Below are positions 1-52,376 of a DNA stretch of 64,000 nt, piece by piece; position 1 is the first letter of the stretch; each line of letters begins with the position of its first letter. The translations under genes were made by a program, and so were the position numbers. The DNA comes from Candidatus Omnitrophota bacterium (GTDB lineage Bacteria; Omnitrophota; Omnitrophia; Omnitrophales; Aquincolibacteriaceae). The notes under the pieces were generated by a model that saw only the letters and a list, made by a program, of their open reading frames with translations, was not told where the DNA came from and did no database searches. The stretch lies in contig JAYTHE010000032.1 in assembly GCA_043732705.1 (NCBI GenBank), positions 2,005 through 66,004 of the forward strand, given 5' to 3'.

Positions 1-13
1 CAAAAAACAAACT

Positions 14-556
14 ATGGCGGGAATTAATTGGAGTGGTATTGCAAACTTGAGTGCAACAGGCGTGAATTGGAACGGAGTCAATCAGGTTGCTGGTCAAATG
101 ACATCGACTTTTACCCTTGCACAGTCAGTGGAAGGAACCTCCTTTAGTATTTTAAAAACAGTCAAGGAATTGCAGGATAAGATTGGCGGGTCTGATTCTG
201 ACCAAACGCTCTTTCAAAAAACGCAGGCAATGCAGTCTTTAATCGAGCAAGTTCAAACTTTGTCGGTTGATATCGCGAAAGATACGAAAGATAACGGCAA
301 AAAGGCGACCGACATTGTCAATAAGCTCGTTGAGCTGGCTAACAAGCAGGCAAAAGACTTAAAATTTGTCGGTGACGGAGTCAAAAAGTTAAGTAAGGAA
401 CAAGAAGAGAAGATGGGTGCGGTTCAGGATAAGTTGGCAGAAGTTAAAACTTATCTCAATGCGATCAAAGAGGCGACCGATTCTCGAGATAAATACAAGG
501 ATGACCAACAGCCGACAACTGCGGTTGTTCAGTCTTGGCTTGAAGCAAGCGAATAG
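14..556 (+). CDS. hypothetical protein with no transmembrane segment
   Basis: 180-aa ORF with an AAACAAACT-ATG start context; I recognise no motif. Confidence 0.35.
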   Translation: MAGINWSGIANLSATGVNWNGVNQVAGQMTSTFTLAQSVEGTSFSILKTVKELQDKIGGSDSDQTLFQKTQAMQSLIEQVQTLSVDIAKDTKDNGKKATDIVNKLVELANKQAKDLKFVGDGVKKLSKEQEEKMGAVQDKLAEVKTYLNAIKEATDSRDKYKDDQQPTTAVVQSWLEASE

Positions 557-650
557 ACTGATAATCAGGAAGAACAGGCTCAAAAAACCCCACATTAAGC
601 CGTTAATATATTAAGTTCTTTTGATTTTAATCCAATTTGAATGGATATGA

Positions 651-2042
651 ATGGTTGCACAGTCAGTTTTTAAAATAACTCATTTTTCAGACGCATCCCG
701 CAGATTTATTTCAGCGGGATTGCTTCTTCTTCTTTTTTTCTTTTGCCGGACTGGACTTTGCGAAGATTCGATTAAGATCAAAATTTTAGCCGTTAATCCC
801 TCCTCGACAAAAAGCCTCAAAACAAAAGTCGTCCAATATCTTCCTCCGGAAGTGGGGCCTGACGATGTGTTGGATAAAGAGGGGTTGGAGATTAAGTATG
901 ACTCCGAAAAAAGATCGTATTTAATTCAAAAAGAGGTTGAGCTTAAGCCCAGTGAAGCGCAAACAATAGAAGTGCGCGTTCGCAATGTTTGGATAATTAC
1001 TCCAGAGCAAATCGATGAAGTTAAATCTCAGCTCAAACAGAGTTCAGATGCGCTTGCCAAGACTAAATTTGCCGCAACAGGAAAACTTCTTTTCGATCGG
1101 GCGAGTGAGTCAATATCGCAAATTGAGGAAAATCAAGTAAAGCCGCTTGGGATTATGCAGAGAATAGATCTTTACCGCCTGAATGTGAAGCAGTTGGAAG
1201 ACTTAAAGCAGAATGCATTGTCGCTTGAAGCGATGAGAAAATTAGAAGAAGAAAAAAAAGCGGGCATCCGCGAAGTTAAGTTTGTTGTGAGCGCCGAAAA
1301 TCCTGCCGCGAAGGAAAAGAAGCTTTCCGTGCGTAGCGATCTTCCGAAGGATGTCAAGGCGGGGGATGTTTTGGAAAAAGGCGATTTCAAGCTTGTGTTT
1401 GACAATAGAAAATCACTCCTTTCGCTTGAGCGTGAAGACACTTTAGGGCCGCATGAAGTCAGAAAATATGAAATTATAATTCGCGACATTTGGTATATTC
1501 CCCAAAGTGAGCTCGATTTCTTAAAAGGAGAACTTGAAAAGCTGGTGCCTCTTTTTGATAAAAGCCCGTATGAAGATTTTGCCGCTAAGCAGAGTGAATT
1601 TGTTACGAAGTCGATTCAAGCCATTGTCGCATTGCAGGCTGAGGTCTCTTCTTCGGCCAGTTTGGATGATCGAATCCGTGCGCATGTTCTCAATGAGCAA
1701 CGCGAGAATTCGGCTAAACGAAGAATCAAGGAACTTCAAGATTTGCTTTCTGAGGTTACTCTCAAGCCCAATGAAAAGGAAGACAAGGGGCAGCTTCAGC
1801 AGATGATCAGAAAGCTGCTTGATCTGAAAAATAAAGTTCTGATCGCGCTTGGTACGCAGCCTAAAAAAACAGTGTTTTGGTGGTTCTTTCTTGGGGTTAT
1901 CTTTTTCTTAGCGGTCGTCACGATTATTTTTTATGGTACATGGCTTAAAAAGCTCCAGGATAACAAATGGGGCGTTCAACCCGCTAAAGGCAATCCCAAG
2001 TCCGAATCTAAAGATGAATCAGCGGCCGAACCTAAACCATGA
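651..2042 (+). CDS. coiled-coil protein with an N-terminal hydrophobic segment and a C-terminal transmembrane helix; translationally coupled to the downstream ATPase alpha gene
   Basis: 463-aa ORF; stop TGA 2040-2042 overlaps the ATG of the next gene at 2039; hydrophobic stretches AGLLLLLFFFC and FWWFFLGVIFFLAVVTIIFYG; charged heptad-like repeats between them. Confidence 0.5.
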   Translation: MVAQSVFKITHFSDASRRFISAGLLLLLFFFCRTGLCEDSIKIKILAVNPSSTKSLKTKVVQYLPPEVGPDDVLDKEGLEIKYDSEKRSYLIQKEVELKPSEAQTIEVRVRNVWIITPEQIDEVKSQLKQSSDALAKTKFAATGKLLFDRASESISQIEENQVKPLGIMQRIDLYRLNVKQLEDLKQNALSLEAMRKLEEEKKAGIREVKFVVSAENPAAKEKKLSVRSDLPKDVKAGDVLEKGDFKLVFDNRKSLLSLEREDTLGPHEVRKYEIIIRDIWYIPQSELDFLKGELEKLVPLFDKSPYEDFAAKQSEFVTKSIQAIVALQAEVSSSASLDDRIRAHVLNEQRENSAKRRIKELQDLLSEVTLKPNEKEDKGQLQQMIRKLLDLKNKVLIALGTQPKKTVFWWFFLGVIFFLAVVTIIFYGTWLKKLQDNKWGVQPAKGNPKSESKDESAAEPKP

Positions 2043-3532
2043 CAGACTTAAAATACAAAGAATACGGAACTGTCAAAGCCGTTAGCGGTTGTATCGCAAA
2101 AGTAATCGGTCTGCAAAATTGTTTTTTGGGGCAGTTGGTCAAGCTCGGAAAAGGCGCGGAAGGAATTATCATGGGTTTCGATTTAGAAATCGCGCAAGTT
2201 TTGATTGTGAAAGAGGCCGAGCCTGTTAGCCCGGGATGTGAAGTGATCGGAACGTTGGAGCCGTTCAATATGCCGGTCGGGGCCAATACGATCGGAAGAA
2301 TCATGAACCCTTTGGGGGATGCGCTCGATGGATTGGGACCGATTTCATTTGATACGCGCATCCCTTACTTTAACGCCGCTCCGGCTATTATGGATCGTGA
2401 AGGTTTGGGCCGATCATTTGAAACCGGAGTGAAGCTGATCGATACCATGCTGCCTTTAGGTAAAGGACAGCGCTCATTGGTGTTGGGCGATAAGATGACA
2501 GGCAAGACAACAATTGGCACGGATATTATTGTGAATCAAAAGGGCAAAGATGTCATTTGCATTTATTGCGGTATTGGAAAAACAAAATCAGCCATGGGAC
2601 GAGTCATTGATATTTTTAAAGAAAACGGCTGTTTTGATTACACAATTATTTTGCTGGCAGCGGCATCTTCTTCGCCGGGATTACAGTATTTAGCGCCCTA
2701 CGCAGCTTGTTCGCTCGGAGAATATTTTATGTACCAGGGCAAAGATGTTTTTATTTTTTTTGATGATTTTACGACGCATGCCTGGGCCTATCGGGAATTA
2801 TCGCTCTTGATGGAAATTCCTCCAGGAAGAGACTCTTATCCGGGTGATATTTTTTATTTGCATTCGCGCATGATTGAACGCGCGGCCCAACTTGATAAAA
2901 AACACGGCGGAGGATCGATGACCTTTTTGCCGGTGGTTCAGCTTTTGGAAAGCGATATGACGGCTTATGTGCCGACTAATCTGGTTTCAATGACAGACGG
3001 ACAGCTCTCGTTAAACGCGCAGCTTTTTAATGAAAATTTTCGCCCGGCCGTGGATGTGGGGTTATCCGTTTCGCGCGTCGGAAGCCGTGTCCAATGGAAA
3101 GCGACCAAAGCGGTGACTAAGTCCTTGCGCATGGAATTCATTCAATATAAAGAATTAGTGCGTATGAGCAAACTCCAATCGGGAGGGTCGGACGAAACCC
3201 GCGAAACTTTGCGTTCAGGAAAAGTGCTTTCGGCGCTTCTCATGCAAGCGGCAGGCAAACCAGTTGCTCTCGAAATGGATATTATTATTTTTTACTCAAA
3301 AGATGTCGGTCTTTTTAAAAAAATGGAAGCCCAGCATGCTCCCGAGTTTCTGAAGGGGCTTGAAGCCTATGTGGAAAAAACAGATTCTTTGCTGCGCAGT
3401 GACATTCGCACCAAAAAAGATTTAACTGACGACTTGAAAGCAAGAATTAAAAAAATAATTGAACCCTATGTGAGCACTGTTATTAAGCAGGTGGATGACG
3501 CGAAAAAAGCCACGTTAGCTCAAATTCAATAA
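2039..3532 (+). CDS. atpA: F-type ATPase alpha-subunit-like, divergent
   Basis: Alpha-type P-loop GDKMTGKTT; N-terminal beta-barrel region resembling alpha (GRIMNPLGDALDGLGPI); full-length 497 aa. Confidence 0.8.
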   Translation: MTDLKYKEYGTVKAVSGCIAKVIGLQNCFLGQLVKLGKGAEGIIMGFDLEIAQVLIVKEAEPVSPGCEVIGTLEPFNMPVGANTIGRIMNPLGDALDGLGPISFDTRIPYFNAAPAIMDREGLGRSFETGVKLIDTMLPLGKGQRSLVLGDKMTGKTTIGTDIIVNQKGKDVICIYCGIGKTKSAMGRVIDIFKENGCFDYTIILLAAASSSPGLQYLAPYAACSLGEYFMYQGKDVFIFFDDFTTHAWAYRELSLLMEIPPGRDSYPGDIFYLHSRMIERAAQLDKKHGGGSMTFLPVVQLLESDMTAYVPTNLVSMTDGQLSLNAQLFNENFRPAVDVGLSVSRVGSRVQWKATKAVTKSLRMEFIQYKELVRMSKLQSGGSDETRETLRSGKVLSALLMQAAGKPVALEMDIIIFYSKDVGLFKKMEAQHAPEFLKGLEAYVEKTDSLLRSDIRTKKDLTDDLKARIKKIIEPYVSTVIKQVDDAKKATLAQIQ

Positions 3533-3543
3533 AGAAGTCTATT

Positions 3544-3822
3544 GTGCCAAAAGCAAAGTTTCCGCTCGAGGTTGTGAGTACGGTGGGAATTATCTTTCAA
3601 GAGGATGTTGAGTCGGTTTATTTATTCGGGGCCGAAGGAGAGTTTGAGTTGCTGCCGTACCATTTTCCGCTTGTCGCCTCGCTGGTTTCAAGCGAGATTG
3701 TGATTCAGGGGTATGATTCTTTACCGATTCAGTCAGGTGTTGTGATGTTCAGGGATAATCAGTGTACGGTTATCGCCGAAATGCAGACTGGATTTAAAAA
3801 ACTAAAAAAGGCATGGTTTTAA
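3544..3822 (+). CDS. atpC: F-type ATPase epsilon subunit, short form with beta-sandwich domain only
   Basis: LEVVS...GAEGEFELLPYHFPLVASL matches the epsilon N-terminal domain pattern; 92 aa, lacks the C-terminal helices. Confidence 0.55.
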   Translation: MPKAKFPLEVVSTVGIIFQEDVESVYLFGAEGEFELLPYHFPLVASLVSSEIVIQGYDSLPIQSGVVMFRDNQCTVIAEMQTGFKKLKKAWF

Positions 3823-4041
3823 ATGGGGCAGAACGGAGCGGTTATTTTAGTCGTGATTTGCGCCGTGTTGGGGCCGGCAGCTGTTATCGCGGTGCTGGGT
3901 GCGGCCAGTATTAAAGCTTTGGGGCGAAATCCTTCCGCGGCGCCCAAAATTTATATGGGTGTAATTTTGATGCTTGTTTTCACTGAGGCAACTTCAATTA
4001 TGGCTTTGATGGTTATTTTTCATATTTTTGGGTCGAAATGA
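3823..4041 (+). CDS. atpE: F-type ATPase c subunit (proteolipid)
   Basis: 72-aa two-helix hairpin; Gly/Ala-rich helix 1, polar loop GRNPSAAP, conserved carboxylate E in helix 2 (VFTEATSIM). Confidence 0.7.
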   Translation: MGQNGAVILVVICAVLGPAAVIAVLGAASIKALGRNPSAAPKIYMGVILMLVFTEATSIMALMVIFHIFGSK

Positions 4042-4063
4042 TTTGTAAGAAGGAACAAAACCT

Positions 4064-4789
4064 ATGATGCTTTTGCAATTTATTATTTTGCAGGTTGTTG
4101 TGTTCGGCGTGGTAATTTTCTTTTTAAAGAAAATATTTCATGGCGACACAAATAGCGCCATTCAGCGTTTAGGGAGTGTGCATCAAGATTTACTTCAAAA
4201 GCAAATCGAGCTTCAAAAGAAGAACGAAGAAATTGAAAAAGAACTGGAATTAAAACGGGAAGAGGCGAATGCTGTCGCCGAAAAAATGAGAGCGGAAGCC
4301 GCGGTCGAAATCCGCAAAAAAGAGGATGAAGTTTTGAAGGTGGCACGCACGCAGGCGGAAGAAATTATTAACAAAGCACAGTTGTCGCGTGAAGATATGG
4401 CTAAGGAAATTGAATCGCAGTTGAGCAGAAAAATGATCGGTTTTTCAGCGGAAGTCGTGAAGAAAATTATGAGTGACAAACTAGCGGCCGTGATTCATGG
4501 CGAGCTGGTTAGTGACTTTATTTTGAAAGCGAAAGGCATGGATTTGTCTTCCGCGGGCGGCGCTAATGAGATTTTTGTTGTTCGTACGCCGGTTCCTCTT
4601 AGAAAAGAAGAAATTGAAAAGATCAACGCCTTGCTTGCGAGTAAGCTCAACCGTGTTGTGCAATTCAGCGAGGTTCCTGACGCGGATTTAATCGCGGGGA
4701 TCGTAATGCAGTTTGGCTCACTGGTTCTTGACGGATCATTAACAAGTTTATTGCGCGACGCAGTCGAAAAAATTCAACAAAAATATTGA
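4064..4789 (+). CDS. F-type ATPase b/delta fusion (peripheral stalk)
   Basis: N-terminal transmembrane helix plus long charged helix (b-like); C-terminal about 100 aa resemble the delta/OSCP C-domain (GIVMQFGSLVLDGSL). Confidence 0.55.
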   Translation: MMLLQFIILQVVVFGVVIFFLKKIFHGDTNSAIQRLGSVHQDLLQKQIELQKKNEEIEKELELKREEANAVAEKMRAEAAVEIRKKEDEVLKVARTQAEEIINKAQLSREDMAKEIESQLSRKMIGFSAEVVKKIMSDKLAAVIHGELVSDFILKAKGMDLSSAGGANEIFVVRTPVPLRKEEIEKINALLASKLNRVVQFSEVPDADLIAGIVMQFGSLVLDGSLTSLLRDAVEKIQQKY

Positions 4790-4813
4790 TTTCTCGGGAT
4801 GAAGAGGTTTTGA

Positions 4814-5719
4814 ATGGGAAAAGCAACCCGGTTAAAAGCTGAGCTTGAAGATGTCGGATCTTTGCTTGAGATTTTAACTGTTTTAAAGGATGTCTCATCG
4901 AACCGTTTTTTGGTTTATTCCGGAAAAAAAATACATTATCGAAGATTTGTAGAAATCTTTATGAGTTTTTTTGAGCTCTTGGACGGCTCTCAGACAACAA
5001 GTCCGATCGTTCATAACAAAAATCAAGGGACTGATATTCTCGTACTGACTTCAGAGCTTGGATTCATGTCGCAATTGAATAGCCGGGTTAGCACGGCGGC
5101 TCTCGAAGAATACAACAAGGATCCGAATTCACGGTTGATTTGCATCGGTCAACGAGGTTCGGAAAAATGTCGGAGTATGGGAATGGTAGTTGAGAAAATA
5201 TTTTCGCCGCCTGCGTCAGACGACCGTACCGAGTTGGCTTACCAGATCCGTGACTATTTGGTGGAAAGAGTAAATAGCGGAAAAACGGGAAAAGTAGCGA
5301 TGGCCTATGTTTGGGCAAAAAGTCTGGGTGTTTTGAAACCGGTGGTCATTCCGTTACTGCCGTTTCATGATGTTCAAGACCATCACCACAAAGAGCATAA
5401 AACAAAGAGAAAAACGGGATCCGGATTACCGCATAATATTATTTTTGAAACTCAAATTGATTCGATAGTCCTGACTTTAGCGAGTATCTGGGTGCATATG
5501 CGTCTTTTTGAAATGTTGAATGATTTGCAGATTGTCGAGGCCGCCGCGCAAGCCCATCAGCTTGAATCCGCAATTGAAAGTTTGAGCGGCGAAAAGAAAA
5601 AGGTGTTAATTGATTTTAGAAAAGCGACGCGCGAGCAATTGAATGCCGCGATGCGCGGAGTCATTACATCAACCAATATGACCAAAGCAAAAATCCGGGC
5701 TAAGGCAAAGCAAGGTTAA
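4814..5719 (+). CDS. atpG: F-type ATPase gamma-subunit-like
   Basis: N-terminal helix pattern ATRLKAELEDV...LEILTVLKDVSSNRF resembles gamma; 301 aa; sits between b/delta and beta. Confidence 0.5.
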   Translation: MGKATRLKAELEDVGSLLEILTVLKDVSSNRFLVYSGKKIHYRRFVEIFMSFFELLDGSQTTSPIVHNKNQGTDILVLTSELGFMSQLNSRVSTAALEEYNKDPNSRLICIGQRGSEKCRSMGMVVEKIFSPPASDDRTELAYQIRDYLVERVNSGKTGKVAMAYVWAKSLGVLKPVVIPLLPFHDVQDHHHKEHKTKRKTGSGLPHNIIFETQIDSIVLTLASIWVHMRLFEMLNDLQIVEAAAQAHQLESAIESLSGEKKKVLIDFRKATREQLNAAMRGVITSTNMTKAKIRAKAKQG

Positions 5720-5723
5720 GTTT

Positions 5724-7211
5724 ATGAACCAAGATAATTCCATTCCCTCTGTTCAAGGCGCTGCCGAAGCAGAGGTTCCACGGCCCATTTCCGCCGTAAA
5801 ACCCTCTGAAATACCGCCCTGTTATGGGAAAATTATCGGGGTTCGCGGTCCTGTCGTGGATGTGCGGTTTGACCGCACAGAAGATATGCCCGCCACATAC
5901 GATATTTTAATCGGGCAGGGTTTTGATAAAAGAAAAATCGTCATTGAAGTCGCCGAACATCTTAGCAAAAATGATGTCCGCTGCATTTCACTCTCCGATA
6001 CTTTAAATCTGCAGCTCAACACCAAAGTCTTAAACACCCGGAAATCAGTCAGCATTCGAACAGGCGATGAGCTTTTTGGGCGAATCATTAACGTTTTTGG
6101 AGACCCAATTGATAATTTAGGGGAATTTAGCGGCGTTGATTTTCGAGTGACCCGTCGTCCTCCTCGTCCGGAACTCTTCAATATCAAAAGTAAATTTAGT
6201 TTGAAGCCTGAAGTGCTTGAAACCGGCATTAAATTTATGGATATTCTTTATCCGCTTTGCAAAGGCGGAAAAACGGGAATCCTCGGAGGCGCGGGCTGCG
6301 GTAAAAGTGTCGTGATTTTGGAATTGATCAATAATATCGTGAAGAAATACGACGGAGCCTGTGTTTTTGTCGGCATCGGTGAGCGTATCCGCGAAGGGAA
6401 TGATCTTTTCTATGAATTGAAAGAAAACCATCTTTTGCATCGCGTTAAACTTGTTTTTGGCCAAATGAATGAGCCGCCGGGTGCACGTTTTGAATGTGTG
6501 AATACCGGAATTACGCTCGCCGAAGATTTAGCGGAACAAAATAAAGACGTACTGTTATTCATGGACAATGTTTTTCGATTCATTCAGGGAGGTATGGAAA
6601 TTGCGGCTCTTTTGGGGCGTGTGCCGGGAGAATCAGGTTACCAGCCGACTTTGCAATCCGAGGTGAACGCCGTGCAGGAGCGCATCCGCTCGATTCCGGG
6701 CCGCGGATCGATTACATCGCTTCAAGCTGTTTATGTTCCTGCGGACGATATGACAGACCCCTCTGTTGTGTCCATTTTTAGCTGCTTGGATGGTGCGTTA
6801 GCGCTGTCCCGCGATTTGGCCCAGCGTGGTTTTTATCCGGCGATCGATGCTTTGAGAAGTTCCTGCACAAATCTTGATGCGCGCATTGTCGGTCAGCGTC
6901 AATACGATTTAAGTCAAAAAATGTTAGCGCTTTTTGCGAAGCATAATTCTCTGAAGCGCATTGTGCAGGTTGTGGGTGTTGAAGAACTTCCCAAAGATGA
7001 TCAATTAGATTATAAACGCGCCGAAAAATTAATTAACTTTATGACTCAACCGTTCACCGTCGGCGAAGCCTTTACAGGAAAAAAGGGCGAGTTTGTAAAA
7101 ACATCTGAGGCGGTTGATGACTGCGAGGCCATCATTAGTGGTGATTATGATAAGCTGGGCGCGCAAGAATTTTATCTTATCGGCCGGGCACCGCAGAAGA
7201 AGATGAAATAA
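5724..7211 (+). CDS. atpD: F-type ATPase beta subunit, divergent, with an N-terminal extension
   Basis: P-loop GGAGCGKSV; catalytic GERIREGNDL; DELSEED-like EELPKDDQLDYKRAEKLINFMTQPF. Confidence 0.85.
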   Translation: MNQDNSIPSVQGAAEAEVPRPISAVKPSEIPPCYGKIIGVRGPVVDVRFDRTEDMPATYDILIGQGFDKRKIVIEVAEHLSKNDVRCISLSDTLNLQLNTKVLNTRKSVSIRTGDELFGRIINVFGDPIDNLGEFSGVDFRVTRRPPRPELFNIKSKFSLKPEVLETGIKFMDILYPLCKGGKTGILGGAGCGKSVVILELINNIVKKYDGACVFVGIGERIREGNDLFYELKENHLLHRVKLVFGQMNEPPGARFECVNTGITLAEDLAEQNKDVLLFMDNVFRFIQGGMEIAALLGRVPGESGYQPTLQSEVNAVQERIRSIPGRGSITSLQAVYVPADDMTDPSVVSIFSCLDGALALSRDLAQRGFYPAIDALRSSCTNLDARIVGQRQYDLSQKMLALFAKHNSLKRIVQVVGVEELPKDDQLDYKRAEKLINFMTQPFTVGEAFTGKKGEFVKTSEAVDDCEAIISGDYDKLGAQEFYLIGRAPQKKMK

Positions 7212-7212
7212 T

Positions 7213-9540
7213 ATGATTTCTACGAACGATCGATCCACATATAAAATTTTATTGGCATCCCAAGCCATTGCTTCCGATATTTTGGAAAAAGCCCTTAAAA
7301 CTGCTGAATCCGGACCGCGTTCCTTTTGGAAAGTGCTGGCCGAATCAAGCGGTTTGGGTGAATCGGGGCTTTATGAGGTTCTTTCCAGGCAAACCGGAAC
7401 GCCGTTTGTGCAGCTCAAGAAAATGACCGTTGAGGCTAAGGCACGCGAAAAAGTTCCCGTTAAAATCGCCTGGTATTATAAATTTTTTCCTTACAAAATG
7501 GAAGAAGGCAAGGTTTGGGTCGCATTTTCTCAAATTCCCGATATTTCTATTTTGGATGAAATTCGATTCGGCATCGGAATTGACGTGATGGTTGCGTTTG
7601 CGCCAGAAAAAGAAATCGAAGAAATGCTGAATAAGCATTATGGCTTGGGCGCGGATACCGTAAATAAAATTATCAGCCAGACACCCGAGTCGGAGGCTCA
7701 CCAGACTTCCAGCTCGACGCATCAGGTGGAAGACATTGAAAAGGGAGAGGATAATGCGTCTATCGCCCAGCTTGTAAATCAAATTATTCTCGAAGCTTAC
7801 AAGAAGCGTGCAAGCGACATTCATTTAGAACCTTATCGCGGCAAAGTTCGCCTCCGTTACCGTATAGACGGTGTTTTGCATGAAGCTCCCGTGCATGCTG
7901 AAATGAAAAAGTTTTTCACTTCCATTCTTTCGCGTATCAAAATCATGTCTAATTTGAACGTCGTCGAAAAACGTTTGCCGCAAGACGGAAAAATGCGAGT
8001 TAAAACCCAGGACCAAAATTTAGATTTACGTGTTTCGTCTATCCCGACCTCGCACGGTGAAAGCATGGTGATTCGAATTTTAACTGGTAAAAATGTTTGG
8101 TCGTTGGATGCGCTTGGATTTGAGCCCCAAAATCTAGCTCAAATTAAAAATCTTTTGCAAAGACCCAATGGGATTATTTTTGCGACCGGACCGACGGGAA
8201 GCGGGAAAAGCACGACGCTTTACGCTTGTTTAACCGCACTGAATTCCGAAGAACGAAAAATCATTACGATTGAAGACCCTGTGGAGTATGAATTGGAGGG
8301 CATCAGTCAGATTCAGGTTGCGAGCGACATCGGGCTGGGTTTTTCGCAAGGATTGCGCAGTGTCTTGCGTCATGATCCTGATGTCTTGATGGTGGGCGAG
8401 GTGCGGGATTTAGAGACCGCGGACATTTCCATTCGCGCCGCTTTAACGGGCCACCTTATTTTATCGACGCTGCACACGAATGACGCGGCAAGCGGAATTA
8501 CACGCTTGACGGACATCGGTGTTGAAAAATATTTGATAGCGTCGAGCGTTGTTGCTTTTATTGCGCAGCGGCTCGTCCGTGTGATTTGTCCGAAGTGCAA
8601 AGTGGTCCGGACAGATTTAGATCAAAAAATTGAAGAACAGATGATGATAAGTTTAAGAATCAGCCCGCAGGATAAAGTTCAGACTTATCAAAGCAAAGGT
8701 TGCGACGATTGTAATGGGACGGGCTTTGCAGGACGAAGAGCCATTCATGAGGTTTTGGTCATGACGGACGAAATACGAAAGCTCATCATGGATGGAGTCC
8801 CTGCCGGTGAAATCAAACGGCACGCCATGCGTAAAGGAATGGCGTCTTTGATGCAGGATGGTTTTCGGAAAGTGCTCCAAGGGATGACGACGCCCGAAGA
8901 AATTATGCGTGTTGCTCCGTCTGACCGCGAGGCGGGGGAATCAACGTATTTGTCCATGGAAGGAATGGGTATTGAACATCTTCCTATTCCAATTAAGTCT
9001 GATGCGGGAAGAGAAAGGGAGTTTTTGGCGTCGGTCGGGGATCAGGAATCGATGTTTGTTGGTGCAACTCAAAAAGAGGTTGAAAGTCAAAGAAAATACA
9101 AAAGAATAGCAATCAGTTTGCCGCTTAGTTATCGCCTGATTGAGTATCAGGCTGAACAAGTTCCGCCGTTGTCAACGATGAAAGAGGCTATTCTTAAAAA
9201 AAACTGGGAAGCGGAAGTTCAAGATATCAGTGCCGGGGGGCTTTTATTTGCAACTGAAAATTTGAGCCTTCACACTAATGAAAAAAAGTCAGAAGCAACT
9301 AATGTCAGCGTGAGCGATATTATTAATGCTGGAAGCGTCTTAGACCTTCGGATTACATTGCCGGATGGCGAAAGTCCGGTCAATTGTATCGGACGAGTTT
9401 TGCGGGTCTCACGTTCCGTGAAAAAACAGGAGTCCACCGAACAATTTATTTTCCATGTTGCCGTGCTTTTTCTTGTGATTAATAGTCATGACCGTTTAAG
9501 AATCGAAAAATTTTGTACAATGGCAGAGAAGAAATCATGA
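7213..9540 (+). CDS. gspE: GspE/PilB-family secretion ATPase with an extra C-terminal PilZ-like domain
   Basis: GspE N-domain; Walker A GPTGSGKSTT; tetracysteine CPKC...CDDC; the final ~200 aa carry RKYKR (RxxxR) and DISAGGLLF (DxSxGG) PilZ motifs; ATG is 2 nt after the atpD stop. Confidence 0.85.
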   Translation: MISTNDRSTYKILLASQAIASDILEKALKTAESGPRSFWKVLAESSGLGESGLYEVLSRQTGTPFVQLKKMTVEAKAREKVPVKIAWYYKFFPYKMEEGKVWVAFSQIPDISILDEIRFGIGIDVMVAFAPEKEIEEMLNKHYGLGADTVNKIISQTPESEAHQTSSSTHQVEDIEKGEDNASIAQLVNQIILEAYKKRASDIHLEPYRGKVRLRYRIDGVLHEAPVHAEMKKFFTSILSRIKIMSNLNVVEKRLPQDGKMRVKTQDQNLDLRVSSIPTSHGESMVIRILTGKNVWSLDALGFEPQNLAQIKNLLQRPNGIIFATGPTGSGKSTTLYACLTALNSEERKIITIEDPVEYELEGISQIQVASDIGLGFSQGLRSVLRHDPDVLMVGEVRDLETADISIRAALTGHLILSTLHTNDAASGITRLTDIGVEKYLIASSVVAFIAQRLVRVICPKCKVVRTDLDQKIEEQMMISLRISPQDKVQTYQSKGCDDCNGTGFAGRRAIHEVLVMTDEIRKLIMDGVPAGEIKRHAMRKGMASLMQDGFRKVLQGMTTPEEIMRVAPSDREAGESTYLSMEGMGIEHLPIPIKSDAGREREFLASVGDQESMFVGATQKEVESQRKYKRIAISLPLSYRLIEYQAEQVPPLSTMKEAILKKNWEAEVQDISAGGLLFATENLSLHTNEKKSEATNVSVSDIINAGSVLDLRITLPDGESPVNCIGRVLRVSRSVKKQESTEQFIFHVAVLFLVINSHDRLRIEKFCTMAEKKS

Positions 9541-10769
9541 AAATTTACCATTATCGCGCTAAAAAAAGCCCGACCGAAGTGAGAGAGGGAACTCTTCAAG
9601 CTGAGACTGAAGAAGAGGTCATCACGAAGGTTAATGATATGGGGTTAGTAGTGGTTCAGATTCAAGAGGTAACTGATAAGCCCGAGTCTGCGGCCTCTGC
9701 GCTTCATACCAATGAGCGCGCGCGTCCGTATCGAGGCCTATTGGGGCATGCCGTGACGCGTTTCTATAAGCAGTTTGGCCGACTCATTCAATCGGGTATC
9801 CCTATACTTCAGGCACTGAAGTTAATGGCTGATCAAACTGAAAGTGTCCGTCTCAAACATATTATTCAGGAAATCCAAAAAAATGTTGCTGAGGGGCTTC
9901 CTTTGTCACAGGCGCTATTTAAATATCCCGAGTATTTTTCCCCGTTTGACCTTGCCATGATCGAGGCCGGAGAATTGGTGGGACATTTGGACGAATCTTT
10001 GAAGCGGATAGCAATTTATCGAGATAGCCAGGAAAAACTGATGTCGAAAATCCGCGGATCGCTTGCATATCCGATTTTTGTGACGGTGGCGGGAGTCGCT
10101 GCGATTGTTTTTATGCTGTCTTTTGTGATGCCTAAGTTTAGTTTGTTTTTCTTGGATTTAGGACAAGAGCTGCCGCTTTTAACCCGGCTTTTAATCGGAG
10201 CTAGTCACATTGCAGAAAAAAGCTGGATCGGAATTTTAGGCGCGGCCGTTGTTTTATTTTTTATTTTCCGACGATCTTTACAGGCGGATGCCAAGCAAAT
10301 GGGGTGGCATCGTTTTTATTTAGGGCTTCCCAAAATCGGCCGCTTGATTGTGTATTCACAATTTTCACGATTTGCGCGAACTTTGAGCCTCTTGCTTGAA
10401 AGCGGAATTCCGCTGCTTAAAGCTTTACAGACTTCTTTGCCCGTTGTTACCAATCAAGTGATCCGCGCGCAATTACAGGTTTGCCACGCCGCGATCGTTG
10501 AGGGCGGCAGTTTTGGGGAAGCTTTGCGCCGCTCGGATCGAGTACCGGTTTTTGTGACCCAATTAATTCGAGCAGGCGAAGAGTCTGGGCGGCTGCAAGA
10601 GTCGTTGAATGATATTTCCGATTGGTATGAACAAGAGTTGCAGGAGAATGCGGAAGTTTTAACCAAACTTTTGGAACCGATTTTAATTTTAGCGGTAGGA
10701 GCGATCTTAGGGCTGATGGTGATTGCGGTGCTGCTTCCCATTTTTAGCATGAATGCGGCGGTTTCTTAA
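9537..10769 (+). CDS. gspF: GspF/PilC inner-membrane platform protein
   Basis: Two tandem GspF domains with three transmembrane segments; ATGA overlap with the gspE stop (the alternative upstream start at 9513 is less likely). Confidence 0.85.
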   Translation: MKIYHYRAKKSPTEVREGTLQAETEEEVITKVNDMGLVVVQIQEVTDKPESAASALHTNERARPYRGLLGHAVTRFYKQFGRLIQSGIPILQALKLMADQTESVRLKHIIQEIQKNVAEGLPLSQALFKYPEYFSPFDLAMIEAGELVGHLDESLKRIAIYRDSQEKLMSKIRGSLAYPIFVTVAGVAAIVFMLSFVMPKFSLFFLDLGQELPLLTRLLIGASHIAEKSWIGILGAAVVLFFIFRRSLQADAKQMGWHRFYLGLPKIGRLIVYSQFSRFARTLSLLLESGIPLLKALQTSLPVVTNQVIRAQLQVCHAAIVEGGSFGEALRRSDRVPVFVTQLIRAGEESGRLQESLNDISDWYEQELQENAEVLTKLLEPILILAVGAILGLMVIAVLLPIFSMNAAVS

Positions 10770-11729: not shown

Positions 11730-12339
11730 ATCCGGTTTTACACTGATCGAGCTATTAGTCTCGATGGTTATTGCCGTGTTTGTTGGCGGGGCAATTTTTG
11801 TGACTTTTGCGCAGGGCATTCGGATTTGGCAGGCGGCGGTACGGGAAAGTCAGCATGGCAAAGAAGAGTTTTTCTTCGAAGAGCTGAAATCAGAATTACG
11901 CAATGCTTTCCTCTATAAGAAGTCAGCATTAAATGGACAGAGCCAAATGTTTGAATTTCACACTTTGGCAGCGCAGTTACGCGGAAAAAATAAAAACCAA
12001 AAAATTTGGAAAGTCCCGGCGCAAATTCGTTACCGTTTTGATCCGAGTCAGAAACTCATTCGGAAAGAAGTTACTTTTTATGAGAAGATGCTGACAGAAA
12101 AGGGTGGGGTGGATCAAACCCGGGTTGTTCTTGAGGCTGTCACGGATGTAAATATAGAGTATTATCGACACCCGAAGAAAGGTTCGTCGGCAAGTTGGGT
12201 GCGTCATTGGAGCGACACTTGTTTTCCGGAGGCGGTTAAAATTACAATTGAAACTGAATCCGGCCCTAAGATGAAAGAAGTTCGAATTGTGTCAATTCCC
12301 GCAACTGGGGAATGCACAGAAGAGGAAAGTGCGGTATGA
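11698..12339 (+). CDS. minor pseudopilin (GspJ-like)
   Basis: Leader MPAFRTPPQSKSG|FTLIELLVSMVIAV. Confidence 0.6.
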   Translation: MPAFRTPPQSKSGFTLIELLVSMVIAVFVGGAIFVTFAQGIRIWQAAVRESQHGKEEFFFEELKSELRNAFLYKKSALNGQSQMFEFHTLAAQLRGKNKNQKIWKVPAQIRYRFDPSQKLIRKEVTFYEKMLTEKGGVDQTRVVLEAVTDVNIEYYRHPKKGSSASWVRHWSDTCFPEAVKITIETESGPKMKEVRIVSIPATGECTEEESAV

Positions 12340-13880
12340 GTTTTTGGGAAAAAGCAAAAGACTGTTTAGCGGTTGATTTCTCCGGAAATCAAATGAAGAT
12401 TTTACGTGGTCAGTCCGTAAGCGGAAAAATTGTATTTAAAGACATCTTTTTTAAAAAGTTTTCGCAGGCATCCGATGCGGAAATGATGCGCGAAGTCCTG
12501 CAGTACTTTAAGAAGAATCGTATTTCCACGAAACAAGTTATCTGCACCATTCCTTCAAAATTATTTATCTCTAAAAATGTAGAAATTCCATCGACTGAAA
12601 AAGAAGAGATTGCAAAAATCATTGATTTGCAGGCGGGACGGTTTACCCCTTATTCCCGGGACGAAATTGTGATCGATTTTCTCTGTATGGAAACACCGAC
12701 TCAACATTACACCAGTGTTTTGCTTGTCATTGTTAACCGTACTTTAGTAGACCGCTATTGCCGAATTTTTGAAGATATCGGAATTCCGATTAAGATTATG
12801 ATTGCCTCAGAGGCAATGGTGCTAACCTACCGGGACTTACTGGCGGGTTCTGCGAATAGCTCGGCTGCCCTGGGCGGGCTTTGCATCGGAGAAGACTCGA
12901 CGGATTTTACGGTGATGGACCATAATCAAATGGTTTTTGTGCGTAGTTTGCCGGTTGGCGAGGAGCATTTTCAAGCCGGAAAGGATCTGGCTTCTGCGGA
13001 ATTGATTAAGGAGCTCAATAAATCTCTCTCGGCGTATCAAGACCAGGGGGTAGGAAAACCGGTTAAATCACTTATTTTGACGGGTTTTATTGACGATCCG
13101 AACGGCTTAAAGGCTATGCTGCTAGCCGGTTGTCCTATTTTACAGCGTTTTGAAACAGCTGTGACGACCTTCGGTAAGGCATCTCAGCAATTATTTCAAA
13201 TTAGTGAACAGGCTCTTCAAAAAATAGATAAAGTGAAGCCTGCGTCTTTTATTGAATTGATGATGGTGCTTTCCAAATCTGAGCAGGCGCAAATCGATTT
13301 AATTCCCAAGGAAATTAAGCTTAAGCGCGGTTTCCGCGAACAAAGCCATGAGATTACGAGCTTGGGAATCACGATCATGACAATCTTTATTGTGCTCAGC
13401 CTTTTTCTCTACACCAAAATTTATTTCAAAAATACGCGCATGCAAAAAATAGAGGCCGCCGGCAAAGCCACATTTGACGACGCGCGCATGCTAGAGCGAA
13501 TTTCAACGAAGAACCGGGTGGTACGAAAAATTTTAAAAACACGCGGTAAAGGACTTTCAGCGTTTGATGAGGTAACGGGTTTATTAGGGGAGTCGACCTA
13601 TCTTTCACATATGGGATATGACATTGACGGCAAAATCACTTTAGGCGGAACGGCAGAATCCATGTCCCAGGTGTTTGCCCTGGTGAACCGGCTAGAGGCT
13701 TCGAATCATTATCTGAGCGTCAAAGCGACAGAAACAAAATCACGCCGCGAAGGGACGAAGGACGTCGCGGACTTTGAAATTGTTTGTATTCTGCCGGAAA
13801 GTATCGCGGCAGAGAAATGGGAAGATGAAAAGTCAGGGAAATCAACCGCGTCGACAAGTTCGGAAAAACCCGGCGAATAA
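12336..13880 (+). CDS. GspL-like / PilM-PilN fusion (cytoplasmic actin-like domain, transmembrane segment, periplasmic domain)
   Basis: PilM-like N-terminus (LAVDFSGNQMKILRG); single transmembrane segment ITSLGITIMTIFIVLSLFLY; ATGA overlap with the upstream stop. Confidence 0.55.
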   Translation: MSFWEKAKDCLAVDFSGNQMKILRGQSVSGKIVFKDIFFKKFSQASDAEMMREVLQYFKKNRISTKQVICTIPSKLFISKNVEIPSTEKEEIAKIIDLQAGRFTPYSRDEIVIDFLCMETPTQHYTSVLLVIVNRTLVDRYCRIFEDIGIPIKIMIASEAMVLTYRDLLAGSANSSAALGGLCIGEDSTDFTVMDHNQMVFVRSLPVGEEHFQAGKDLASAELIKELNKSLSAYQDQGVGKPVKSLILTGFIDDPNGLKAMLLAGCPILQRFETAVTTFGKASQQLFQISEQALQKIDKVKPASFIELMMVLSKSEQAQIDLIPKEIKLKRGFREQSHEITSLGITIMTIFIVLSLFLYTKIYFKNTRMQKIEAAGKATFDDARMLERISTKNRVVRKILKTRGKGLSAFDEVTGLLGESTYLSHMGYDIDGKITLGGTAESMSQVFALVNRLEASNHYLSVKATETKSRREGTKDVADFEIVCILPESIAAEKWEDEKSGKSTASTSSEKPGE

Positions 13881-13892
13881 TAAGGTTAGGGC

Positions 13893-14594
13893 TTGATGGC
13901 AAATAAAAAATTTAATATAGGTGAGTTTCTTGGTCAGCGCACCAAAGGCGAAAAGACGCTGGGGCTGGCGGCTGCTATTACTGTTTTTGCGGGATTGATG
14001 TATGGCGTGGTGATCGGCCCGATTTTGACAAAAATGAATGCTATCGACACGGATATTTCAACCAGCCGCGATGAAATTCGCCGCGACAGACGTATTTTAT
14101 CGTTTAAAAATCGAATATTAGAAGAGTATTCCAAGTCTAATTCATATCTGGACTCAACGCAAAAAAGTTCGGAGGAAATTATCGCGACATTGCTCAAAAA
14201 AATTGAGGGTGTCGCAAAGGATAATTCAATTACTGTGAAGGACATTCGCCCCGGAGAAACCGAAATGAAGCCGCAGTTTAAAGTTTATAAAACAAGCATG
14301 GATTGCGAGGGTACTCTCACTAACTTATTGGCTTTAATGAATACACTTGAACAGTCAGACTATCTTTTCCAAATTACTCGCTACAGCTTGGAGCCAAAAT
14401 CAAAAGGCGCGGATATATTGAAAGCCACTCTCGATATCGCCCGTTATCTGATTCCCGCTGAAAAAATCGAGGCTTCCATGCTGGAGACGAACAATATGCC
14501 CGCCGTGCCTGCGGACTCCCCGGCAACGGAAACATCCGAAGTCCCGGCATTTCCGGATATGCCCGGCGATGAACCCAAGCCCAAAAATTCATGA
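13893..14594 (+). CDS. GspM/PilO-like bitopic inner-membrane protein
   Basis: Short cytoplasmic N-terminus, one transmembrane segment, periplasmic coiled region, Pro/Glu-rich tail. Confidence 0.45.
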   Translation: MMANKKFNIGEFLGQRTKGEKTLGLAAAITVFAGLMYGVVIGPILTKMNAIDTDISTSRDEIRRDRRILSFKNRILEEYSKSNSYLDSTQKSSEEIIATLLKKIEGVAKDNSITVKDIRPGETEMKPQFKVYKTSMDCEGTLTNLLALMNTLEQSDYLFQITRYSLEPKSKGADILKATLDIARYLIPAEKIEASMLETNNMPAVPADSPATETSEVPAFPDMPGDEPKPKNS

Positions 14595-15412
14595 ACAAAA
14601 AACGGCTCTTTTTTATTTCTTTTTTTCTTTGCGTAAATTTTATTTTTCCGGTCACCCTGTTTGCGGATCCTGCCGCGCCCGTGGATTCCTCAAGTAATTA
14701 CGAAAAAGCGGTATCCTTTTTAAAAGAAGACCAATACGATTCAGCTATTGAATTTTTTCAAAAAGCATTGCAAGAGGATCACGGCCCCGCCGAACAAGCG
14801 CGGATTTATAATTTGATCGGATTAGCCTATCTCAAGCAAGGTGTTTCAACATCAAGCGCAGTTGGTTCTTTTGAGCAGGCGATTAAACTTGATCCGCAAT
14901 TTGCCGAAGCCTATTTTAATATTGCGAGCGCTTATGCCGGTAATAACGCGCAGACCGAAAAGGCAGCGGAGTATTTTCAGAAAACGATTGAAATTGACCC
15001 GCATTTTTTTAAGGCTTATTTTGGGTTGGGTTGGTTTACTTTGATGCAAAAGGATGATCCCGCTAAGGCCGCTGAATATTTTCAAAAGACCCTGGACCAA
15101 TATCCAGAATTTGCTGAGGCTTATTATGGGATGGGCTTGGCTTATATTCGCACCCACAAACCACATATGGCTTTAGGCGCGGTCTCACAGTTGCGTGGTT
15201 TGAAGCGTGATGATTTAGCCGCGGTTTTGGAGCAGGCGATCAAGGACGTTTCTCCGCCGGCGGATTCAGGAACGCCGGCACCAGCGCAAGCGGTAAGAGG
15301 TGCCCCGGCTACTGCTGCGCCGCAACAGCAGGAAACCGCCCGTCCTAAAGCGCATTCGCCGTTTGAGATGGTGATGAAGGGCCGGCTGACCCCGCCTAAA
15401 AAATCCTCATAG
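14591..15412 (+). CDS. secreted TPR-repeat protein (PilF/PilW-like piloting factor?)
   Basis: Signal peptide; about five TPR units (AEAYFNIASAY, FKAYFGLGWF, AEAYYGMGLAY); ATGA overlap with the previous gene. Confidence 0.55.
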   Translation: MNKKRLFFISFFLCVNFIFPVTLFADPAAPVDSSSNYEKAVSFLKEDQYDSAIEFFQKALQEDHGPAEQARIYNLIGLAYLKQGVSTSSAVGSFEQAIKLDPQFAEAYFNIASAYAGNNAQTEKAAEYFQKTIEIDPHFFKAYFGLGWFTLMQKDDPAKAAEYFQKTLDQYPEFAEAYYGMGLAYIRTHKPHMALGAVSQLRGLKRDDLAAVLEQAIKDVSPPADSGTPAPAQAVRGAPATAAPQQQETARPKAHSPFEMVMKGRLTPPKKSS

Positions 15413-15419: not shown

Positions 15420-15764
15420 CTAGTCTTTTTTAATTTTTTTCAGTTGATGCTCGAGTTGAGCAACTGCCTGAGCCAAAGATTCCGTGCGGGAGTTTTGCTC
15501 GTTGATATAAAGCGTTAAATGTAAACTGAGAAAAATAACGAAAACAAGCAGCATAAAGAAAATAAAATTACTCGGCAAACTGAAACCCGCCCAATTTGAA
15601 ATTTGAACGAGCAAGCTGTTATTGAACGCAAAAAATAAAGCCACTCCGCAGCCGATAAACCAGTTTGCGGCATATTTAAATGTCATTTTTTCACGGCGTA
15701 TGAGATCTACCACGGCCGCAACGATAATGAGCGCAATGACAATAATCAGGAACTTAGTTTGCAT
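15420..15764 (-). CDS. DUF2304-family small membrane protein (GT2-associated)
   Basis: Four hydrophobic segments; MQTKF start preceded by GGAGAT; classic position immediately 3' of a GT2 polyprenyl-phosphate glycosyltransferase. Confidence 0.55.
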   Translation of the reverse strand: MQTKFLIIVIALIIVAAVVDLIRREKMTFKYAANWFIGCGVALFFAFNNSLLVQISNWAGFSLPSNFIFFMLLVFVIFLSLHLTLYINEQNSRTESLAQAVAQLEHQLKKIKKD

Positions 15765-16479
15765 GTTTGGATATCTCCGGTTTTTTCTTAAGAGCATCGA
15801 TTAGAATGGCAAGTGTTACTTTCAGCATATAATAGAGCGTCGCTAAATAGCGGATGGACGATTGTCCGCCGCGCCGCTCGCGCATTTGGACGGGAATTTC
15901 ACCGATCCGGGACCTGTGGCGCCGCGCTATTTTAATTGCTTCCGGTTCCGGAAAATCAATAGGATAATACTCGGCAAAGCGGCATATCAGGTTGCGGTTG
16001 CAGGCTCTGAATCCCGAGGTTGGGTCCGTGAGGTAGAGGCCTGTCATTAATTTGAGCAGACTACAGAAAAAGCGGATGCCCAGGCGCCGCATCCATGTGG
16101 ATTTAAATGAGTCATCATGAATAATGAAACGGCTGCCGATACAGAGATCCAAATGATTGTCGAGAAGAGGCTGAATGATTTCTTTTAAATAACGCGGATC
16201 ATGCTGGCCGTCGCCGTCAATTTGAACCGCAATGTCATAGCCCATTTCGGCCGCAATTTTGTAGCCGGTTTGGACAGCGCCGCCGATTCCCATATTAAAG
16301 GGCAGGGTCACGACATCGGCGCCGGCTTTGAGAGCCTCAATCTCGGTTTGATCGCGGGATTGATCATTGATGACTAAAATATCGGCAAAAGAAGCGGCCA
16401 AGCGAATTTCCGAGATAAGTCCGGCAATCGCTTTTTCCTCGTTGTAAGCGGGAATAATAATTAAAATTTTAGAGGACAT
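15754..16479 (-). CDS. GT2 polyprenyl-phosphate sugar synthase (DPM1/ArnC-like)
   Basis: IIIPAYNEE...VINDQSRD...DGDGQHDP motifs (DXD). Confidence 0.8.
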   Translation of the reverse strand: MSSKILIIIPAYNEEKAIAGLISEIRLAASFADILVINDQSRDQTEIEALKAGADVVTLPFNMGIGGAVQTGYKIAAEMGYDIAVQIDGDGQHDPRYLKEIIQPLLDNHLDLCIGSRFIIHDDSFKSTWMRRLGIRFFCSLLKLMTGLYLTDPTSGFRACNRNLICRFAEYYPIDFPEPEAIKIARRHRSRIGEIPVQMRERRGGQSSIRYLATLYYMLKVTLAILIDALKKKPEISKHAN

Positions 16480-16495
16480 AGGAAAAATTGAGTAA

Positions 16496-18985: not shown

Positions 18986-19039
18986 GCAGCAACTCAAGTT
19001 GAGGTCTAGAAAATTCCGATGCCGGCCGATAATCTAAGC

Positions 19040-19387
19040 ATGAAAATTCAGCATTTTATTTTAGTTTTATTTCTTCTTGTTCCCGCTGTTTCTTTTGCGG
19101 CAGATGACAAAAAAGAAAACGAGTCTGTAAAAGTAAACGGCATTGTTTTTAATATCGCCAAAGACCGAAAAATTGAAAAAATCGGCGGAGTTTATGAGCC
19201 GGAAGGCATTGATAAGTATGTGGACCGGCGCATGAGCGAAATGACAGAGCGACTTCAAAGAATTGAAATCCAACTTGATGAGACTAATAAAAAGCTGGAT
19301 AAGGTTTTCACTCAGCTGGCTTCAACCGTATCTGTATCCGCACCCACTTCGGCGCCTATTCCAACGAAAGATAAAACTAAAAAATGA
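19040..19387 (+). CDS. small secreted coiled-coil protein
   Basis: Signal peptide MKIQHFILVLFLLVPAVSFA|ADD. Confidence 0.4.
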   Translation: MKIQHFILVLFLLVPAVSFAADDKKENESVKVNGIVFNIAKDRKIEKIGGVYEPEGIDKYVDRRMSEMTERLQRIEIQLDETNKKLDKVFTQLASTVSVSAPTSAPIPTKDKTKK

Positions 19388-45558: not shown

Positions 45559-45616
45559 TTTGGCTTTTGGGCGTCGCTCAAATCGCGATGCCCGCAACAA
45601 TGAGAGAAAAGTTTTT

Positions 45617-51138: not shown

Positions 51139-51157
51139 AGCGGCCAAGGAGAAAATC

Positions 51158-52219: not shown

Positions 52220-52376
52220 AAATTAAGTATTGATATGAAAAAAATCGGCACATTTTTACCGCCGCGTTTTATTTTTTCTTCAGATTGCAGCTTTCGCACG
52301 GAATTACGTACGGGACGCAGACTTTCATCTAAGTGTGTCATCGCGGCGAATAATTAAAAGGTAAGAAAACTAAAAA

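Follow-up and report, generated by a model that had tools for sequence, protein, structure and literature searches.

The 64-kb stretch of Candidatus Omnitrophota DNA analysed here (the window, in what follows) carries the super-operon of 'symbiotic' F-type ATPase and pilus genes known from Omnitrophota, in one copy. Its rotary ATPase genes, encoding the F1 subunits α, β, γ and ε, a c subunit and a fused b/δ stalk protein, stand between the gene of a giant surface protein and a type II secretion/type IV pilus set (GspE, GspF, N_methyl pseudopilins and PilM/N), and subunit a is missing from the cluster. We consider it somewhat better than an even bet (roughly 55%) that the encoded complex is an ATP-hydrolysing motor working with a pseudopilus gated by cyclic di-GMP (c-di-GMP) and with a giant adhesin. 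The locus type and its interpretation as a recruited motor are already known, having been published in 2023 (Seymour et al., Nat Microbiol, PMC10066038).

That study described a non-respiratory F-type ATPase ('sF-ATP') beside type-4a pilus clusters in every Omnitrophota class, with the locus in 56 of 111 Velamenicoccia species and with ATPase and pilus genes within 10 kb of each other in 57 of 66 contigs; giant open reading frames (ORFs) were found in the same genomes, and an analogy was drawn to the gliding motor of Mycoplasma mobile. The window is the same in kind, its source being Omnitrophota and its F-type ATPase lying within 10 kb of a cluster resembling that of type-4a pili. Genes were assigned by Pfam and NCBIfam profile searches of the window ORFs, and P460 is the name used here for the 463-residue membrane protein at 651–2042. 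The features concerned are the following:

2–556 (+): tail of the upstream large or giant surface protein; conserved helical module, frame open to the left window edge
651–2042 (+): P460, 463 residues, bitopic membrane protein; no Pfam family above cutoff, AlphaFold2 model
2039–3532 (+): F1 α, 497 residues; PF00006 and PF00306, TIGR00962
3544–3822 (+): F1 ε, 92 residues, N-terminal β-sandwich only; PF02823 over residues 7–79
3823–4041 (+): Fo c subunit, 72 residues; PF00137
4064–4789 (+): b/δ fusion, peripheral stalk, 241 residues; OSCP profile positions 106–167 of 172
4814–5719 (+): F1 γ, 301 residues, divergent; PF00231 over residues 6–271, 70 bits
5724–7211 (+): F1 β, catalytic subunit, 495 residues; TIGR01039
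7213–9540 (+): GspE/PilB-type assembly ATPase, 775 residues; T2SSE 442 bits, MshEN 48 bits, PilZ 28 bits
9513–10769 (+): GspF/PilC platform protein; PF00482 191 bits, TIGR02120 347 bits
10802–12339 (+): GspG-like major pseudopilin, minor pseudopilin and GspJ-like protein; T2SSG, N_methyl and T2SSJ, ORF starts approximate
12312–15412 (+): PilM-PilN fusion (522 residues), 233-residue protein in the PilO position, and TPR protein; PilM_2, PilN and TPR domains
20427–21425 (+): GspK-like minor pseudopilin; T2SSK_1st and T2SSK domains

The order α, ε, c, b/δ, γ, β had been proposed from the letters of the sequence and their translations, and both the ORF list and the Pfam and NCBIfam profiles bear it out at these coordinates. 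As that sequence-only reading also held, the order is unlike the canonical one: it is rearranged in the window, and in a sister clade (clade B, below) the ATPase genes are interleaved with pilus genes. The two tight junctions that it had pointed out were read directly from the sequence, namely a 4-nt overlap of P460 and α (ATGA at 2039–2042) and, after the β stop codon (TAA, 7209–7211), a single spacer base before the GspE start (ATG at 7213). The window genes carry no frameshifts, and promoter and terminator scans of the window gave matches at chance level only.

Comparison was made with about 40 related loci, taken from the genomic context of β homologues, from species-representative genomes scanned with a P460 alignment (28 loci) and from later additions, and annotated with phmmer. 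The closest β homologues are 60–92% identical and, where the sources name them, come from Candidatus Omnitrophota or Omnitrophica. Among the best β relatives sampled on long contigs, all 120 of 120 show the same pilus-linked synteny, and the order giant protein, P460, ATPase, GspE, GspF, pseudopilins is kept in 27 of the 28 species-representative loci, as well as in metagenome contigs whose β is 61–91% identical. Recurrence in about 40 loci puts the arrangement far beyond what chance would give. The system may extend beyond Omnitrophota, as some metagenome-assembled genomes (MAGs) containing it are labelled 'bacterium', UBP3 or Deltaproteobacteria, labels that are unreliable for MAGs.

In clade A, to which the window belongs, the large or giant protein is followed by P460, α, ε, c, b/δ, γ, β, GspE, GspF, GspG, a minor pseudopilin, GspJ and PilMN. 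The median gap is 2.5 nt between β and GspE (28 loci) and 9 nt between P460 and α. Six clade A loci lack ε, and one Omnitrophota MAG (JACPXL01) holds two complete copies of the cluster (L028 and L031), both without ε and without subunit a. Clade B, which is largely Omnitrophota and includes the complete genome CP070837.1, has a giant protein of up to 12,503 residues, a one-module P460, Peptidase_MA, c, b/δ, α, γ, β, GspE, ε, GspF, pseudopilins, PilMN and PilO (PF04350, the gene after PilMN), with b/δ preceding c in L032 and L036. The position of ε between GspE and GspF was found in all four clade B loci inspected (L032, L035, L036, L037). Clade C is marked by two α genes beside one β; the order is α′, α, ε, c, b/δ, γ, β in L041 and ε, c, b/δ, α′, α, γ, β in L043, in both cases followed by GspE and GspF, and L040 likewise has two α paralogues. 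The second α of L041 lacks the SxSR(V/I)G Arg-finger motif, and the cluster also contains an AAA ATPase in L040 and L043.

A variant from which the ATPase has been precisely deleted, from α through β, is found in L007, which aligns to window positions 2–2058 and then to 7213–10336. The α start and its first five codons persist directly before GspE as a 12-codon remnant (L007 3040–3080), and the giant tail, P460 and the pilus genes are kept. Such a clean deletion suggests that the ATPase is an accessory module. L038 was considered as a second contig of this type and was discarded: it has a close P460, but its ATPase is present.

Rotary subunits and the search for subunit a

To judge from profile hidden Markov model (HMM) and PDB scores, α and β are divergent F1 subunits and not members of the Mycoplasma families. 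The atpA and atpD cutoffs are both passed, with 499 bits against 484 for α (TIGR00962) and 497 bits against 463 for β (TIGR01039). The window α aligns to residues 29–510 of its E. coli counterpart at 35% identity, without some 20 N-terminal residues that form the δ-binding helix, and β is 43% identical to E. coli β. In the PDB ranking, the canonical β subunits listed reach 364–418 bits, compared with 337 bits for Mycoplasma G1 β (9io5_A); for α, canonical F1 subunits are the best matches and G1 α falls outside the top 60. By these scores the window α is closer to canonical F1 α, in contrast with the placement of α alongside Mycoplasma Type 2/3 proteins in PMC10066038.

The residues expected in a working F1 head are invariant in the clade: the P-loops, the catalytic Glu, Walker B, the adenine-pocket region and the α Arg finger. 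They are contained in the motifs GDKMTGKT (P-loop) and SVSRVG (Arg finger) of α and GGAGCGKS, GIGERIREG, LLFMDNVFR and AVYVPADDMTDP of β. These catalytic motifs, as well as the c subunit, remain invariant at β identities down to about 60%. The P-loops had been put forward as divergent, and they are indeed signatures of the clade, but they fit the Walker A consensus and are invariant rather than degenerate, so that little can be argued from them.

Other parts of the complex are shortened. The ε subunit, correctly described beforehand as a truncated 92-residue form, aligns to residues 5–93 of the 139 of E. coli ε and is devoid of the C-terminal inhibitory helices, which in bacterial F1 inhibit ATP hydrolysis. 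In the b/δ protein an N-terminal transmembrane (TM) helix, conserved across the related loci, and a long helix (the b part) are joined to the δ C-terminal domain, which matches residues 113–168 of E. coli δ, and the δ N-domain, which canonically binds the α N-termini, is absent. Its best NCBIfam match is the N-ATPase b model TIGR03321 (46 bits, E 5e-12, cutoff 224.7), and in clades B and C Pfam detects ATP-synt_B and OSCP within a single protein. For γ, every NCBIfam γ model stays below its cutoff. There are thus three coordinated losses, of the α N-terminal helix, the δ N-domain and the ε C-terminal domain.

The c subunit keeps the helix-2 carboxylate (E54) and the loop GRNPSAAPK, and the helix-2 Glu and the loop GRNPS(A/S)APK are invariant in every clade. 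A second c paralogue of 81 residues adjoins the first in L005 (6286–6531) and also in L006; the L005 copy keeps the helix-2 Glu and not the Arg-Asn-Pro (RNP) loop, a composition that suggests a mixed c-ring.

The claim that no subunit a lies in the 64 kb stands as far as PF00119, the family of the subunit that provides the ion half-channels and the essential Arg, was sought among the window ORFs scanned; Pfam annotations computed beforehand for about 40 related loci and their 10-kb flanks likewise lack the family. Used as a query against all stop-to-stop ORFs of 38 loci and the window, E. coli subunit a gave 0 matches at E≤10; in the same search E. coli c, b, δ, ε, γ, α and β each found their counterparts. 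A hydrophobicity screen for a divergent subunit a, selecting ORFs of 120–450 residues with at least four TM segments, returned six candidates, mostly antisense ORFs inside giant genes plus one DUF819 protein, none of which matches PF00119; in the window, four or more TM helices are seen in a DUF819 protein and in no other. A gap of about 760 bp between b/δ and c in L032 was considered as a site for subunit a and was found to encode a Peptidase_MA_2 protein instead. The other subunits remain linked through at least four gene orders, and subunit a never appears in the clusters. One genome of the Seymour study (no. 221) has the α and β KEGG orthologues (KOs) and not K02108, going by the available portion of the genome-by-KO table, in which three genomes are informative; this is weak evidence, as the c and b KOs are missing too and divergence could hide genes.

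The giant protein, P460 and the pilus genes

The protein encoded upstream of P460 ends, in the window, with a module of about 185–190 residues whose last letters are ...AVVQSWLEASE. A module of this kind, with the consensus end ...V(K/Q)(S/A)W(L/M)E, is encoded upstream of P460 in almost every related locus, on proteins that reach 3,300 to more than 12,000 residues there. Many related contigs (L008–L031) start 1.4–5 kb upstream of P460, the assemblies breaking inside the giant gene, and therefore MAGs built from short reads under-report the link between giant gene and cluster.

P460 had been described as a coiled-coil, membrane-anchored protein, and the membrane part of this description holds. 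The AlphaFold2 model (mean predicted local distance difference test score, pLDDT, 80.6) shows a protein that is not chiefly coiled coil: an N-terminal hydrophobic signal or anchor helix is followed by two repeats, each a β-sandwich plus a three-helix bundle, and by a C-terminal TM helix. This last helix is conserved, with invariant Trp, Gly, Phe and Tyr, and precedes a short Lys-rich tail. The charge distribution points to a largely periplasmic P460 with a cytoplasmic tail. No Pfam family was found above cutoff in the HMM check, and an exhaustive profile search gave a P460 family of 919 representative clusters, whose members contain a single module or two; proteins of 1,167–3,399 residues can likewise end in this module at their C-terminus.

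Fused forms bear on what P460 may do. In three proteins (P0358, P0359 and P0351) the giant-tail motif is followed after four residues by the first P460 strand, and the chain continues to the P460 TM helix; in L043, a fused protein of 1,851 residues occupies the slot of giant protein plus P460. From these fusions it follows that the split-form P460 is most likely a membrane anchor binding the tail of the giant protein, and it would thereby act as its anchor and transducer. A second kind of fusion carries a C-terminal GGDEF domain, present on 11 of 11 tested P460-family members of 610–692 residues with the GG(D/E)EF site intact in 10 of the 11, and in L041 such a P460-GGDEF fusion sits in the P460 slot.

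GspE combines an N-terminal MshEN domain, T2SSE and a C-terminal PilZ domain (PF07238, 28 bits with a cutoff of 22.5). MshEN is a c-di-GMP-binding domain. Both PilZ motifs are intact in the window protein, RKYKR for RxxxR and DISAGG for (D/N)xSxxG, as they are in 25 of 27 full-length clade A orthologues. Taken together, the P460 position seems to provide an input across the membrane, with the pilus ATPase serving as an output controlled by c-di-GMP. Further regulatory genes occur in clade B, namely a GGDEF response regulator between Peptidase_MA and c (L035 5746–6642) and a Cache-HAMP-PAS sensor protein between γ and β (L037 7205–9979). In the window itself, a c-di-GMP-I riboswitch (Rfam RF01051, 52994–53133, − strand, 58.3 bits for a gathering score of 35) is situated upstream of the gene for a transglutaminase-like cysteine protease (52377–52928, − strand) and constitutes a second c-di-GMP-responsive element besides the GspE that bears PilZ and MshEN.

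The pilus genes are of the type II secretion/type IV pilus kind; GspE falls just below both equivalog cutoffs (571 against 630 for GspE and 552 against 676 for PilB), so that the subtype may be either type II secretion system or type-4a pilus. Neither a secretin (PF00263) nor a prepilin peptidase (Peptidase_A24) was found among the window ORFs scanned; secretins are present inside the related clusters L040 and L043. The pseudopilin order of the window is kept in related loci, and GspK, which directly adjoins its fellow pseudopilins in L005 and L035–L037, is split off in the window by an insert with STT3 and glycosyltransferase genes.

Possible role of the ATPase

The proposal that an F1-like motor has been recruited to another machine is the one that we favour, on the strength of the tight β–GspE junctions, the placement of ε in clade B, the absence of subunit a and the three losses. 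The genes would specify an F1Fo-like complex made of α3β3, γ, a short ε, a c-ring and a single b/δ stalk, with no subunit a. F1 would hydrolyse ATP and turn γ, ε and the c-ring against the membrane-anchored b/δ stalk, this direction being proposed because F1 is catalytically intact, the ε brake has been lost and a path for ions is not apparent, the last a consequence of the missing subunit a. Rotation would thus be spent on mechanical or conformational work in the envelope rather than on ATP synthesis or ion pumping. P460 would bind the giant tail module, anchor the giant protein in the inner membrane and relay its state across the membrane, and the activity of the pseudopilus would be gated by c-di-GMP through GspE, a suggestion made because sister clusters put a diguanylate cyclase in the P460 slot and because GspE has MshEN and PilZ domains. 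By analogy with the F1-like motors of Mycoplasma, the whole assembly may serve attachment, surface movement, or the attack of host or prey cells.

The parallel with those motors, which had been offered as one reading of the cluster, is useful as an analogy and fails as a family assignment. The Type 3 F1-like X0 ATPase (Berlureau et al. 2026, PMC12994834; Beven et al. 2012, PMC3369863) shares with the window α-, β-, γ- and ε-like subunits and the lack of subunit a, its α-like subunit is also without the δ-binding N-terminal helix (PMC12994834), and its 87-kDa X0 protein has the architecture of P460, starting with a signal peptide and combining two globular domains outside the cytoplasm with TM helices at the C-terminus. 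It is encoded in an operon with the surface proteins MIB and MIP, an antibody-cleavage system that requires it (PMC12994834), whereas the partners in the window are a pseudopilus and a giant protein; moreover, a 12-TM protein replaces its c-ring and it has no b/δ stalk (PMC12994834), both of which the window encodes. The Type 2 G1-ATPase of Mycoplasma mobile (Toyonaga et al. 2021, PMC8406192; 2025, PMC11864180) is alike in being an F1-like, ATP-hydrolysing motor thought to move very large surface proteins, and unlike the window in that it lacks a c-ring and forms dimers in cytoplasmic chains. Membership in either type was rejected, given the c subunit and b/δ stalk of the window and scores far below the cutoffs of the Type 3 models (271 against 520 for α, 361 against 570 for β) and of the NCBIfam glide models for Type 2 (375 against 600, 402 against 850).

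With canonical F1Fo (atpBEFHAGDC) the window shares α, β, γ, the ε β-sandwich, c with its carboxylate, b and the catalytic residues; it differs in having no a in the cluster, in the fusion of the δ C-domain to b and in the shortening of α and ε. N-ATPases (atpDCQRBEFAG) are similar in their long b subunit and lack of a separate δ gene. They possess subunit a, AtpQ and AtpR in a fixed gene order, none of which is found in the window cluster, in agreement with the earlier statement that it departs from the N-ATPase order, and membership was discarded on scores of 471 against 750 (α), 451 against 752 (β), 28 against 282 (γ) and 46 against 225 (b).

The strongest rival holds that the complex is an ion-translocating F1Fo ATPase or synthase whose subunit a is encoded elsewhere or is too divergent, the pilus link reflecting co-regulation, such as local ion pumping or ATP supply during attachment. 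Its chief support is the c-ring, with the Glu and the RNP loop invariant in all clades, and it is further favoured by the TIGR00962 and TIGR01039 equivalog cutoffs being exceeded, by canonical F1 subunits being the best PDB matches and by the retention of a membrane-anchored b/δ stalk; some bacteria, Helicobacter for instance, scatter their atp genes. We nevertheless regard it as unlikely, since none of about 40 clusters, which show at least four gene orders, contains a, the other subunits all remaining linked, and since E. coli a finds nothing where the less conserved b, δ, c and γ do. To this are added the MAG in which the cluster is duplicated with a in neither copy, the loss of the δ N-domain, the α N-terminal helix and the ε C-terminal domain, the ε gene interleaved with pilus genes in clade B and, with little force, the Seymour genome that lacks K02108, as far as its profile could be consulted. 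Several of these observations tell in the other direction when the recruited motor is considered. Conservation of the c carboxylate and loop is what would be expected if ion binding, and hence an a-type partner, still mattered, and it is the main unexplained fact; α and β pass the atpA and atpD equivalog cutoffs and, by sequence scores, resemble canonical F1 more than the Mycoplasma motors; and the search for a was confined to the window and the related clusters. Also to be set against the recruited motor, the contacts of P460 with the c-ring and with GspE/GspF are predicted, the structure search of the PDB with P460 gave no informative neighbour, the ATPase-less variant comes from one 6-kb contig, and the catalysis and role of every member are predicted from its genes.

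The cluster could instead encode an ATPase that exports or unfolds either the giant protein or the pseudopilins, comparable to FliI-FliH-FliJ on a membrane ring; FliI-FliH-FliJ is a secretion-machine assembly in which an F1-related homohexameric ATPase, without a c subunit, works with a b/δ-like stalk and a γ-like protein. The b/δ fusion has indeed a FliH-like make-up, FliH reportedly combining a b-like N-terminus with a δ-like C-terminus (a description credited to Pallen et al. in 2006), a gene for a giant secreted or surface protein is always immediately upstream, and the cluster sits within a secretion/pilus operon. What makes this improbable in our view is that α and β are still a heteromeric F1 pair, scoring 170–200 bits with FliI/SctN as against about 500 bits with atpA/atpD, scores on which membership in the FliI/SctN family was rejected; furthermore, the complex retains a true c subunit, the cluster has no homologue of an export gate, and GspE already is the usual assembly ATPase. 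Least credible of all is a functionless, decaying remnant of an ATP synthase operon left beside pilus genes. Missing a, δ N-domain and ε C-domain, the loss of ε in six loci and the deletion of the whole module in L007 are what such decay could look like, but the window genes are free of frameshifts, the catalytic motifs and c are invariant, and synteny is conserved across the phylum and beyond; a pseudogene remnant is contradicted by these conservation data.

A bolder form of the recruited-motor proposal is put forward tentatively and is rather doubtful: a new envelope machine in which a channel-less F1Fo rotor with a carboxylate c-ring would be coupled mechanically to a giant adhesin through P460 and to a c-di-GMP-gated pseudopilus, yielding a dual-motor apparatus for attachment or predation. 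Rotary F-type ATPases are textbook ion-coupled machines, and the well-supported cases of F1 motors in other jobs are limited to the Type 2 and Type 3 systems of Mycoplasma and, as more remote relatives, to the ATPases of type III secretion. Among them the Omnitrophota system is the only one in which a true c-ring and a peripheral stalk are retained although the channel subunit has apparently been lost, and it is widespread in an abundant, uncultured and probably predatory phylum. If a is truly absent, the role of the c carboxylate without a channel, the delivery of rotation across the membrane and the anchoring or driving of the giant protein become questions.

Part of this picture can be set against existing surveys. 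In a 2026 preprint on 176 complete Omnitrophota genomes (bioRxiv 10.64898/2026.06.07.730766), α and β were found in 125 and γ in 30 under strict thresholds, and subunits of V/A-type ATPases in 70–99% of most Gorgyraeia; these counts agree with an F-type set that is divergent and non-chemiosmotic and that accompanies a distinct V/A-type enzyme. West-Roberts et al. (2023) reported secretion-system genes near giant genes, with no ATPase mentioned. The portions of the PMC10066038 text that could be accessed make no mention of a missing subunit a, a retained c, P460, the giant tail module or a c-di-GMP link, and the searchable literature has no mention of subunit a, the c-ring or P460 for the Omnitrophota locus. 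Also not found in the searchable literature were an a-less cluster with an invariant c carboxylate, the coordinated stalk and ε truncations, the clade B placement of ε between GspE and GspF, the fusions of P460, the ATPase deletion of L007 and the intact c-di-GMP motifs of GspE. The fusions, the ε placement, the PilZ motifs and the deletion turn a one-paragraph genomic remark into testable hypotheses.

Other genes of the window

An ExbB-ExbD-TonB set and three consecutive FecR-domain proteins are encoded at 44950–46785 and 51083–55470; they are not conserved with the cluster in relatives and are not counted among its parts. A XerC/D-type tyrosine recombinase gene adjoins tRNA-Glu(CTC) at 61742–63002, a site that may mark an integration hotspot or contain no more than housekeeping xerC/xerD. 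The interval from the TPR gene to GspK (15754–20424) is occupied by an STT3/PglB-type oligosaccharyltransferase gene (829 residues) and family-2 glycosyltransferase genes. An STT3 gene also follows the TPR gene in L001–L003, so that, on the evidence of synteny, the genes for glycosylation seem to belong to the conserved make-up of the clade A super-operon; they might act on the pilins or on the giant protein.

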